In this document: piece by piece, positions 27,638-53,912 of the stretch
Layout: every line of letters begins with the position of its first letter
How positions within the stretch are numbered: the stretch's first letter is position 1
Assembly (NCBI RefSeq): GCF_056712565.1
Contig: NZ_CM160072.1
Length of the DNA stretch: 64,000 nucleotides
Reading direction: 5' to 3' (one strand)
The notes under the pieces: generated by a model
Told to the model about the DNA's origin: nothing
The model's database searches: none
Seen by the model: the letters and a program-made list of their open reading frames with translations, nothing else
Program-made: the position numbers and the translations under genes

Positions 27638-29716
27638 ATGTCATATACACCGATGAGTGATCTCGGACAGCAAGGGTTGTTCGACATCACTCGGACACTA
27701 TTGCAGCAGCCCGATCTGGCCTCGCTGTGTGAGGCTCTTTCGCAACTGGTAAAGCGTTCTGCGCTCGCCGACAACGCGGCGATTGTGTTGTGGCAAGCGC
27801 AGACTCAACGTGCGTCTTATTACGCATCGCGTGAAAAAGACACCCCCATTAAATATGAAGACGAAACTGTTCTGGCACACGGTCCGGTACGCAGCATTTT
27901 GTCGCGCCCTGATACGCTGCATTGCAGTTACGAAGAATTTTGTGAAACCTGGCCGCAGCTGGCCACAGGTGGGCTATACCCCAAATTTGGTCACTATTGC
28001 CTGATGCCACTGGCGGCGGAAGGGCATATTTTTGGTGGCTGTGAATTTATTCGTTATGACGATCGCCCCTGGAGCGAAAAAGAGTTCAATCGTCTGCAAA
28101 CATTTACGCAGATCGTTTCTGTCGTCACCGAACAAATCCAGAGCCGCGTCGTTAACAATGTCGACTATGAGTTGTTATGCCGGGAACGCGATAACTTCCG
28201 CATCCTGGTCGCCATCACTAACGCGGTGCTTTCCCGCCTGGATATGGACGAACTGGTCAGCGAAGTCGCCAAAGAAATCCATTACTATTTCGACATTGAC
28301 GATATCAGCATCGTCTTACGCAGCCACCGTAAAAACAAACTCAACATCTACTCCACTCACTATCTTGATAAACAGCATCCCGCTCACGAACAGAGCGAAG
28401 TCGATGAAGCCGGACCCCTCACCGAACGCGTCTTCAAAAGTAAAGAGATGCTGTTGATTAATCTCCACGAGCGGGACGATTTAGCCCCCTATGAACGCAT
28501 GTTGTTCAACACCTGGGGCAACCAGATTCAAACCTTGTGCCTGTTACCGCTGATGTCTGGCGACACTATGCTGGGCGTGCTGAAACTGGCGCAATGCGAA
28601 GAGAAAGTCTTTACCACTACCAATCTGAATTTACTGCGCCAGATTGCCGAACGTGTGGCAATCGCTGTCGATAACGCCCTCGCCTATCAGGAAATTCATC
28701 GTCTGAAAGAACGGCTGGTTGATGAAAACCTCGCCCTGACCGAGCAGCTCAACAATGTTGATAGTGAATTTGGCGAGATTATTGGCCGCAGCGAAGCCAT
28801 GTACAGCGTACTTAAACAAGTGGAAATGGTGGCGCAAAGTGACAGTACCGTTCTGATCCTCGGTGAAACTGGTACAGGTAAAGAGCTGATTGCCCGCGCG
28901 ATCCATAATCTCAGTGGGCGTAATAATCGCCGCATGGTCAAAATGAACTGCGCGGCGATGCCTGCCGGATTGCTGGAAAGCGATCTATTTGGTCATGAGC
29001 GTGGGGCTTTTACCGGTGCCAGCGCTCAGCGCATTGGTCGTTTTGAACTGGCGGATAAAAGCTCACTATTCCTCGATGAAGTGGGCGATATGCCGCTGGA
29101 GTTACAGCCGAAGTTGCTGCGTGTATTACAGGAACAGGAGTTTGAACGTCTCGGCAGCAACAAAATCATTCAGACGGACGTACGTTTAATTGCCGCGACT
29201 AACCGCGATCTGAAAAAAATGGTCGCCGACCGAGAGTTCCGTAGCGATCTCTATTACCGCCTGAACGTATTCCCGATCCACCTGCCGCCACTACGCGAGC
29301 GTCCGGAAGATATTCCGCTGCTGGCGAAAGCCTTTACCTTCAAAATTGCCCGTCGTCTGGGGCGCAATATCGACAGCATTCCTGCCGAGACGCTGCGCAT
29401 CCTGAGCAACATGGAATGGCCGGGCAACGTGCGTGAGCTGGAAAACGTCATCGAGCGCGCGGTATTGCTAACACGCGGCAACGTGCTGCAGCTGTCATTG
29501 CCAGATATTGCTTTACCAGAACCTGAAACGCCGCCTGCCGCAACGGTTGTCGCCCAGGAGGGCGAAGATGAATATCAGTTGATTGTTCGCGTGCTGAAAG
29601 AAACAAACGGCGTGGTTGCCGGGCCTAAAGGCGCTGCGCAACTTCTGGGGCTGAAACGCACGACTCTGCTGTCACGAATGAAGCGACTGGGAATTGATAA
29701 ATCGGCATTGATTTAA
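27638..29716 (+). CDS. fhlA: Formate hydrogenlyase transcriptional activator (sigma54-dependent, GAF-AAA+-HTH)
   Basis: Start at MSYTPMSDLGQQ (692 aa) rather than the ORF-track 704 aa; AAA+ sigma54-interaction motifs ([14 protein letters not shown]). Confidence 0.92.
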   Translation: MSYTPMSDLGQQGLFDITRTLLQQPDLASLCEALSQLVKRSALADNAAIVLWQAQTQRASYYASREKDTPIKYEDETVLAHGPVRSILSRPDTLHCSYEEFCETWPQLATGGLYPKFGHYCLMPLAAEGHIFGGCEFIRYDDRPWSEKEFNRLQTFTQIVSVVTEQIQSRVVNNVDYELLCRERDNFRILVAITNAVLSRLDMDELVSEVAKEIHYYFDIDDISIVLRSHRKNKLNIYSTHYLDKQHPAHEQSEVDEAGPLTERVFKSKEMLLINLHERDDLAPYERMLFNTWGNQIQTLCLLPLMSGDTMLGVLKLAQCEEKVFTTTNLNLLRQIAERVAIAVDNALAYQEIHRLKERLVDENLALTEQLNNVDSEFGEIIGRSEAMYSVLKQVEMVAQSDSTVLILGETGTGKELIARAIHNLSGRNNRRMVKMNCAAMPAGLLESDLFGHERGAFTGASAQRIGRFELADKSSLFLDEVGDMPLELQPKLLRVLQEQEFERLGSNKIIQTDVRLIAATNRDLKKMVADREFRSDLYYRLNVFPIHLPPLRERPEDIPLLAKAFTFKIARRLGRNIDSIPAETLRILSNMEWPGNVRELENVIERAVLLTRGNVLQLSLPDIALPEPETPPAATVVAQEGEDEYQLIVRVLKETNGVVAGPKGAAQLLGLKRTTLLSRMKRLGIDKSALI

Positions 29717-34182: not shown

Positions 34183-34208
34183 CTCATGCTTCTTCTGTGA
34201 AGCATGAG
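34183..34208. terminator. Stem-loop between convergent pphB and ygbI (candidate bidirectional terminator)
   Basis: CTCATGCTTC-TTCTGT-GAAGCATGAG: perfect 10-bp stem, 6-nt loop; T-rich flank on the minus strand. Confidence 0.6.
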
Positions 34209-34231: not shown

Positions 34232-34999
34232 TTATTCATTTTTCGCTACCAGCAAAGAGAGATCCAGCTTCGCCAGCGCGCGGCTGGCACTCTCCGGCAG
34301 ACCGTCGTCAGTAATGATCTGATCAAACTCGCTTAATGGTAACGCCAGCCATGTCGCCACCTGTCCATATTTCGTCGCATCACAGACCAAAACTCGCTGG
34401 CGGCTGGCACTGGCAATCGCCCTTTTCACCGTGACTTTATCTTCTGCTGGCGTAGAGATCCCCCGCACACTCCATGACGATGCAGAAATAAAAGCCTGAT
34501 CAATCATCAGGCTACGCAGCATGGTCGCAGCGGCTTCCCCAACACAGGAACGGTTTTCCCGACACACTGCGCCGCCAGTGTGAATAATTGTGCAATTACT
34601 GTTGTCGAGCAAGTAGTCCGCAATAACGAAGTCGTTAGTAACCACTGTGAGTGGCTCCATGTGAATCAGATGCTGTGCAATCGCTAACGTGGTCGTTCCT
34701 GCATCCAGATAGATACAACGTCCCGGCTGAACAAGACTTGCCGCCAGCTTGCCAATAGCCGCTTTTTGCGTCATTGCCAGCGCAGTTTTTACCTGATGAG
34801 AAGGTTCATGCGCCACGCGTCCCGGAGACTGGACGCCTCCGGACACCAGCACAACGGCTCCCTGCTGCTCCAGTTTTTGTAAATCCCGACGAATGGTCAT
34901 ATGTGACACATTCATTCTGTCCGTTAGTTCAGCAATACTGACAATGCCTTTTTCAGCTACCATCTCAAGGATGATTTGGCGACGCTCTACGGGTATCAA
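34232..34999 (-). CDS. ygbI: DeoR-family transcriptional regulator
   Basis: DeoR HTH plus sugar-binding domain. Start assigned to a TTG 6 nt downstream of AAGGAG (255 aa); the ORF-track start is an in-frame ATG 10 codons upstream. Confidence 0.85.
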   Translation of the reverse strand: MIPVERRQIILEMVAEKGIVSIAELTDRMNVSHMTIRRDLQKLEQQGAVVLVSGGVQSPGRVAHEPSHQVKTALAMTQKAAIGKLAASLVQPGRCIYLDAGTTTLAIAQHLIHMEPLTVVTNDFVIADYLLDNSNCTIIHTGGAVCRENRSCVGEAAATMLRSLMIDQAFISASSWSVRGISTPAEDKVTVKRAIASASRQRVLVCDATKYGQVATWLALPLSEFDQIITDDGLPESASRALAKLDLSLLVAKNE

Positions 35000-35194
35000 C
35001 TTTTGCTCCTTCCTTTGTCCTGCGGACATTCTACGCTATTTGCCTGCGAAACGTGCGCGGCGCAACTAACGCTTAGTTCACATAAAATAACACGCAATGT
35101 TAACTTTTGTGAATCAGCTCACCATATCGTTATCTTTCCGCGCTTATATTCACAACATCAAACAAAATATCACTTAAATTAACAAGGAGAGCAG

Positions 35195-53552: not shown

Positions 53553-53705
53553 CTACTTCTTCGATTCGTAAGCGAGAACTGCCTTAAACTCCATACCACG
53601 TTCTCTGATACTCAACTCACACAACGAGTCGCCTACCATCAACGTGAATCCCAGTACTGTACAACACAGTACGATGATTGCCACAAGGGCATATTTTGTC
53701 AGCAT
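53553..53705 (-). CDS. Hok/Gef-family type I toxin (HokE-like small membrane peptide)
   Basis: 50-codon [53 protein letters not shown]: hydrophobic N-terminal helix, conserved Cys in SLCEL, C-terminal AYE motif; GGAGG Shine-Dalgarno 7 nt upstream; GC-rich hairpin just 3' of the stop. Close by eye to recalled chromosomal HokE. Confidence 0.8.
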
Positions 53706-53912
53706 GTCTTGCCTCCCTGCAAAGAAGAGACTAACATCCGAATTGCTTAGGTTCGAACGTAGGCCTCAGGTTGATAGAAATATCGCCTGGGGCTTTTGTC
53801 CATCTGGAACCTCGCGAATGCTTAACGCCAGACAGCCTCAAGCACCCAATGCCATTCTATACCTGTTAATTCTCCCTGCGACGTTCTCGTTTAAATGCCG
53901 GAATGCTGCTCG

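Follow-up and report, generated by a model that had tools for sequence, protein, structure and literature searches.

Probable initiation of ygbI translation at a TTG codon in Escherichia coli, downstream of an ATG that overlaps the −10 hexamer of the gene's own promoter

Two candidate start codons for ygbI

The gene of the DeoR-family repressor YgbI raises the question of which of two in-frame codons opens its coding sequence. We examined ygbI in a 64,000-nucleotide stretch of DNA (contig NZ_CM160072.1 of assembly GCF_056712565.1; referred to below as the window), where it lies on the minus strand, divergent from ltnD (ygbJ) and convergent with pphB. The longest open reading frame at the locus (34232..35029) begins with an ATG at 35027..35029 (minus strand), the old annotated start, and yields a protein of 265 aa. 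A TTG at 34997..34999 (minus strand) is codon 11 of this frame and opens a CDS of 255 codons plus stop (34232..34999, minus strand, 768 nt). The frame is closed by an in-frame TAG at 35038..35036, three codons ahead of the ATG, which leaves the ATG and the TTG as the sole candidate starts before the helix-turn-helix (HTH) domain. The minus-strand sequence across the 5ʹ end of the gene reads ...AAATAGCGTAGAATGTCCGCAGGACAAAGGAAGGAGCAAAAGTTGATACCCGTAGAGCGT... The true start sets the N-terminus of YgbI, five residues ahead of the DeoR HTH, and a correct N-terminus is relevant to cloning, tagging and modelling of the repressor of the L-threonate/tetronate (ygbJKLMN) cluster.

A 963-nt query comprising ygbI and its upstream intergenic region was 100% identical to the Escherichia coli type strain, ATCC 11775 / DSM 30083, and showed 96.8% DNA identity to K-12 MG1655. 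Among complete E. coli genomes, ygbI is carried by 4587 of 5426. The K-12 gene (b2735) is the same gene, and the TTG start, the Shine-Dalgarno (SD) sequence, the −10 box and the divergent ltnD/otnK are all shared with the window; the two differ by strain-level substitutions only, for example TCC versus TCA right after the −10 box, with no functional difference.

The RefSeq CDS of ygbI in ATCC 11775, in a K-12 isolate and in NC_000913.3 corresponds exactly to 34232..34999 and carries the product name 'DNA-binding transcriptional repressor YgbI'. In NC_000913.3 the gene occupies 2860467..2861234, and its protein, NP_417215.2 (version.2), has 255 aa, the length also given by Gao et al. 2021 (PMC8464067). 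In an earlier study, Mendoza-Vargas et al. 2009 (PMC2760140) reported that the ATG annotation of ygbI was incorrect and that the true start was located 10 codons downstream, on the grounds of a transcription start site (TSS) within the old ORF and of orthologues that were 10 aa shorter. The TTG start is thus already known from curated annotation and from the 2009 publication; what is added here is the explicit overlap of the ATG with the −10 hexamer, outside the transcript, and comparative support at the DNA level. Public protein collections continue to hold the 265-aa version next to the 255-aa one, with at least 1000 contigs carrying the former, and the protein cluster of YgbI includes members of both lengths. 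The longer form is spread by automatic gene callers, the curated records having been corrected years ago. In this respect, ygbI is a clean example of how gene callers that prefer the longest ORF or an ATG stretch a gene into its own promoter.

To compare the candidate starts, the free energy of the duplex between the anti-SD at the 16S rRNA 3ʹ end and the 20 nt before each codon was calculated. The value was −8.0 kcal/mol before the TTG (34999), −2.6 kcal/mol before the ATG (35029) and −1.5 kcal/mol before the next in-frame ATG (34963). As a background set we used 6116 ATG, GTG and TTG triplets from both strands of the whole window. A value of −8.0 kcal/mol was reached by 1.3% of the TTGs, and AGGAG was located 5–9 nt upstream of 0.34% of the start-like triplets; given this rarity, the SD before the ygbI TTG is well beyond chance. 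Approximately 47% of the ATGs reached −2.6 kcal/mol, and the value before the ygbI ATG is therefore background. The SD block, AAAGGAAGGAG, is located at 35006..35016 (minus strand), with AAGGAG at 35011..35006 and a spacer of 6 nt (CAAAAG) to the TTG. With a UUG codon and an anti-SD motif 5–9 nt upstream, both inside the transcript, the ygbI start has the features of a canonical SD-led site.

The original prediction had been made from the SD alone, by eye: it held that the ATG was devoid of a ribosome-binding site and that the TTG 10 codons downstream was preceded by AAGGAG at a good spacing. Both statements are borne out by the background-level pairing before the former codon and by the strong pairing and the spacer length before the latter, and the call agreed with the curated start. 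Its reasoning was incomplete, not wrong, since the ATG, in addition, shares two bases with the −10 hexamer and is not contained in the mapped transcript. The 2009 study, in contrast, argued from the TSS and orthologue length, and the position of the TSS is the decisive argument.

Promoter, transcription start and 5ʹ UTR

In the study of Mendoza-Vargas et al. 2009 (PMC2760140), the 5ʹ end of the ygbI transcript was mapped 21 nt ahead of the TTG, at +9 when counted from the old ATG; this corresponds to position 35020 of the window. In the SMRT-Cappable-seq data (PMC6131387, supplementary file 4), b2735 has a single TSS, at 2861256 reverse; using ygbI at 2860467..2861234 in NC_000913.3 for the conversion, this is position 35021. 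The two maps, both obtained in K-12 under few growth conditions, differ by at most 1 nt and place the TSS at 35020..35021 (minus strand), with a 5ʹ UTR of 21 or 22 nt, AGGACAAAGGAAGGAGCAAAAG. Position 35021 carries an A; it follows the −10 hexamer by 7 nt and the ATG by 8 nt, and precedes the TTG by 22 nt. A coordinate-prefix search of the accessible part of the Ettwiller 2016 Cappable-seq supplements returned no match for a ygbI TSS.

The −10 hexamer of ygbIp, TAGAAT, is located at 35028..35033 (minus strand) and matches the sigma-70 consensus TATAAT in 5 of 6 positions. It is listed in PMC2760140, where the element CGTAGAAT is printed as atagCGTAGAATgtca and the Table 2 entry reads cgTAGAATg. 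The last two bases of TAGAAT are the A and the T of the upstream ATG. As this codon lies upstream of the mapped TSSs and overlaps the hexamer, it is absent from the mapped ygbI mRNA.

No recognisable −35 hexamer was found 16–18 nt upstream of the −10 element of ygbIp, the GCACGT present there being a poor match, and the mapped promoter was not picked up by our consensus promoter scan. Since weak −35 elements are common, the missing −35 element does not overturn the mapped TSS. A search for RNA structure or a regulatory hairpin around the ygbI start revealed none of significance (z = +0.55). In Reg-Seq and related papers, YgbI appears only as a binding protein or with its copy number, and a dissection of the ygbI promoter was not found in them.

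The consensus scan did return a promoter-like site in the orientation of ygbI, at 35113..35084 (TTCACA-18-TATTTT, preceded by a TG). As the main promoter of ygbI this site is unlikely, because an operator-like repeat is located there and neither TSS map has a 5ʹ end corresponding to it. It could still be a source of occasional longer transcripts which, together with read-through, would carry the ATG, so that ribosomes would start mostly at the TTG and produce a minor, Escherichia-specific proteoform of 265 aa. The extended −10 TG of the upstream match, the retention of the ATG in both E. coli and E. albertii, and the few growth conditions covered by the TSS maps are consistent with such dual initiation. 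However, the match coincides with the operator-like inverted repeat, which explains its conservation and AT-richness. Moreover, SMRT-Cappable-seq gave one TSS for b2735, and no other 5ʹ end is reported in PMC2760140. Even on a longer transcript the ATG would be without an SD, and most ribosomes would presumably be drawn to the strong SD 18 nt downstream. We consider dual initiation very unlikely. A still smaller chance is given to an evolutionary version of this scenario, in which a C-to-G change specific to Escherichia, right after the −10 hexamer, made the ATG, and rare longer transcripts yield a minor 265-aa YgbI with a basic extension of 10 residues, MSAGQRKEQK. If true, this would be a very young N-terminal extension ahead of the HTH.

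Comparative evidence and domain architecture

A protein search with the 265-aa translation returned hundreds of homologues. The full-length ones covered at most about 96% of the query (255/265), and none was aligned across residues 1–10. Across Enterobacterales, the YgbI orthologues start with MIP(V/T/A)ER, as seen in Salmonella, Entomohabitans, Scandinavium, Serratia, Yersinia, Brenneria, Pectobacterium, Dickeya, Erwinia, Pantoea and Citrobacter. A contig scan with a single YgbI protein query gave 4 loci, 2 of them from metagenome-assembled genomes (MAGs) labelled Oscillospiraceae and Bacillota, and the more distant orthologues were gathered by protein search and exact-sequence contig look-ups. 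The ygbI gene in the MAG labelled Oscillospiraceae (RKCM01000024.1) shares 98% identity with its E. coli counterpart and is probably a contamination of the bin with Escherichia DNA.

At the DNA level, the codon homologous to the ygbI TTG was TTG, GTG or ATG in 10/10 orthologous loci, each preceded by an SD of −6.3 to −8.8 kcal/mol. TTG is found at this position in E. coli, E. albertii, Entomohabitans and Salmonella, GTG in Serratia, Yersinia and Dickeya, and ATG in Pantoea and Citrobacter portucalensis. Among the ten loci examined, an in-frame upstream start was absent from all eight non-Escherichia loci and present in Escherichia only, where the ATG is kept in both E. coli and E. albertii. 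The third base of this codon is G in Escherichia, T in Entomohabitans (ATT) and C in Salmonella (ATC).

In the alignment of close relatives, AAATAGCGTAGAAT, AAAGGAAGGAG and TTGATACC were conserved and the stretch between them was variable. The first of these, the −10 box, is invariant in Escherichia and Entomohabitans; Salmonella has TAAAAT, and TAAAAT or TATAAT is also found upstream in Serratia, Dickeya and Yersinia. The SD block is likewise invariant in Escherichia and Entomohabitans and reads AAAGAAAGGAG in Salmonella. Between the positions of the ATG and the TTG, Salmonella has a 1-nt insertion (GGACTAAAG) that would cause a frameshift and that introduces an in-frame TAA, six codons ahead of the Salmonella TTG. 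When E. coli was compared with Entomohabitans, the 5 changes in the ten codons preceding the TTG were all non-synonymous (0 synonymous) and were distributed over all codon positions, whereas the 250 codons that follow had 107 synonymous and 48 non-synonymous changes, with third positions strongly favoured. Judged from these alignments, the interval between the ATG and the TTG behaves as non-coding DNA with two regulatory islands.

These results bear directly on the reading of the original K-12 annotation and of many automatic gene calls, according to which the ATG (35029) is the true start and YgbI has 265 aa. The ATG gives the longest ORF and is the preferred start codon, and the 265-aa form is widespread in the collections mentioned above. 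Nevertheless, its position relative to the TSSs and the −10 hexamer, an SD energy equal to the background median, its absence outside Escherichia, the indel and stop codon in Salmonella, the non-synonymous nature of 5/5 codon changes in the interval and the lack of any homologue matching residues 1–10 all argue against it. We regard initiation at this ATG as highly improbable and judge the triplet not to be a start codon.

The domain architecture of the protein was examined on the 265-aa translation. The HTH_DeoR DNA-binding domain (Pfam PF08220; 34823..34984, minus strand; 59.3 bits, gathering score 21) covers residues 16–69 of this form, which are residues 6–59 of the 255-aa protein. The choice of the start therefore alters the N-terminus just before the HTH, which begins at residue 16 or at residue 6, as had been anticipated in the original prediction. 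The C-terminal sensor domain (DeoRC, PF00455; 34307..34774, minus strand; 174 bits, gathering score 31.8) covers residues 86–241 of the 265-aa form. The combination of an N-terminal HTH_DeoR and a C-terminal DeoRC identifies YgbI as a member of the DeoR family. As in the DeoR/GlpR-family repressors GlpR, AgaR, SrlR, DeoR and UlaR, the HTH_DeoR follows the initiator methionine after a few residues and is itself followed by DeoRC. YgbI scored under the equivalog cut-offs of AgaR, SrlR, DeoR and UlaR and thus belongs to a distinct orthologous group. The NCBIfam equivalog model of YgbI, NF040890, gave 477.8 bits against a cut-off of 400 (E = 7e-144), with profile positions 1–253 (of 253) on residues 11–263 of the 265-aa ORF. 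As the profile is aligned end to end from residue 11, its position 1 corresponds to the TTG codon.

Only its codon and its frame favour the following in-frame ATG (34963), which encodes Met13 of the 255-aa form, and a start there has next to no probability: the site is without an SD (at −1.5 kcal/mol), its use would remove the first 7 positions of HTH_DeoR, and the methionine varies among orthologues, being Leu or Ile in Serratia, Yersinia, Dickeya, Pantoea and others. In addition, the YgbI profile aligns from the TTG.

Initiation at the TTG is backed by the SD, two TSS maps, orthologue conservation, non-coding substitutions upstream and the alignment of the YgbI profile. We are thus highly confident that translation of ygbI starts at this codon (34999), exclusively or dominantly, and we infer that its use may be exclusive. 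In the mechanism that we propose, a sigma-70 promoter with the −10 element TAGAAT (35033..35028) would start transcription of ygbI at 35021/35020, and the unstructured 5ʹ UTR, short at about 22 nt, would hold the strong SD AAGGAG 6 nt ahead of the UUG. Pairing of the SD with the anti-SD would position the 30S subunit, and fMet-tRNA would read the UUG as the initiator. The upstream ATG would be a coincidence, arising in Escherichia where the −10 box ends in AT and is followed by a G. The product would be the 255-aa YgbI with the N-terminus MIPVERRQ and the HTH from residue 6. YgbI is the DeoR-family repressor of the divergent ltnD-otnK (ygbJKLMN) cluster.

The ygbI-ltnD intergenic region and other observations in the window

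In earlier work, a single YgbI ChIP-exo site was found between ygbI and ygbJ, and ChIP-exo together with deletion transcriptomics indicated that ygbJKLMN is repressed by YgbI (PMC8464067). During laboratory evolution on m-tartrate, ygbI mutations were selected and the ygb genes were over-expressed (PMC6452873). In the window and in the RefSeq records, ltnD and otnK, coding for L-threonate dehydrogenase and 3-oxo-tetronate kinase, lie divergently upstream of ygbI, and a NAD_binding_2 dehydrogenase is divergent from the ygbI orthologue in Salmonella, Serratia, Dickeya and Citrobacter.

An AT-rich 16-nt half-site similar to TGTTAAnTTTTGTGAA occurs four times in the ygbI-ltnD intergenic region. 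Two of the copies, TTCACATAAAATAACA and TGTTAACTTTTGTGAA, are inverted relative to each other and separated by 5 nt (35077..35113), a candidate YgbI operator whose TTCACA/TGTGAA cores are conserved in Entomohabitans. The two other copies are located at 35148..35185 (35148–35164 and 35170–35185) and overlap the ltnD/ygbJ TSS, which was mapped by SMRT-Cappable-seq at 2861391 forward (PMC6131387) and corresponds to position 35156 of the window. The half-sites are probably YgbI operators, a role that fits the single ChIP-exo site. As with other DeoR/GlpR-family repressors, ygbI is autoregulated and divergent from its target operon, and the intergenic region has repeated candidate operator half-sites.

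The lacI gene, which encodes a low-abundance repressor, has a GUG start. Like such lacI-type regulators, ygbI combines a weak initiation codon with a good SD, and the repressor is present at few copies per cell. A contribution of the weak UUG codon and of autorepression to the very low copy number of YgbI fits these features. According to the Schmidt 2016 values cited by PMC7567609, YgbI is present at approximately 2–6 copies per cell. We searched the INRI-seq supplements for initiation sites and the TRAINSPOTTER N-terminomics supplements, and ygbI/b2735 had no entry in either; the low copy number of YgbI may account for the lack of an N-terminal peptide or initiation-profiling entry.

Downstream of ygbI, the consensus scan indicated a terminator-like hairpin at 34183..34208 (minus strand), with a 10-bp stem including 5 GC pairs, 24 nt past the ygbI stop codon. 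It is located in the 50-nt gap between the stop codons of the convergent ygbI and pphB and may serve as a bidirectional terminator.

Several further features were noticed in the window. The ygbN gene (plus strand, ORF 38867–40051), coding for the GntP-family transporter of the YgbI-regulated cluster, has one base fewer than CP033092.2, the RefSeq type-strain record, near position ~40031. Its ORF is cut to 394 aa versus 454, with the remainder in another frame (40045–40230), and the missing base reflects a genuine frameshift or a fault of the assembly. The rpoS gene of the window is intact (330 aa, ending in ...ALFRE, with a TAA stop codon at 42370–42372, minus strand), whereas CP033092.2 has GAA in place of the stop codon, with a stop-loss resulting in ...ALFREEVSICQKG, and its rpoS is flagged as a pseudogene. 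This difference indicates that the window derives from a slightly different assembly or stock than CP033092.2. Single-base differences between the window and this record are also present at 28415 and 19733, in fhlA and hycE.

A chromosomal hok/sok-type type I toxin-antitoxin locus is located between cysH and iap (53554–53847, minus strand), with an Rfam sok RNA match of 112 bits (gathering score 59) at 53690–53847 and a RefSeq CDS of the Hok/Gef family at the same place. In K-12, the CRISPR-Cas I-E locus occupies the interval between these two genes; within the window, the I-E CRISPR repeat was not found. Some of the names assigned by PGAP look wrong or inconsistent, namely 'HPr family phosphocarrier protein' for ygbM, 'aldolase' for ygbL and the gene name 'flhA' for fhlA. 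Finally, a flavodoxin-family gene and an MBL-fold hydrolase gene lie between ygbN and rpoS (~40930–42750). The mutS-rpoS region is polymorphic among E. coli lineages, and these two genes, as well as the presence of ygbI in part of the complete genomes (the 4587/5426 given above), fit this polymorphism.
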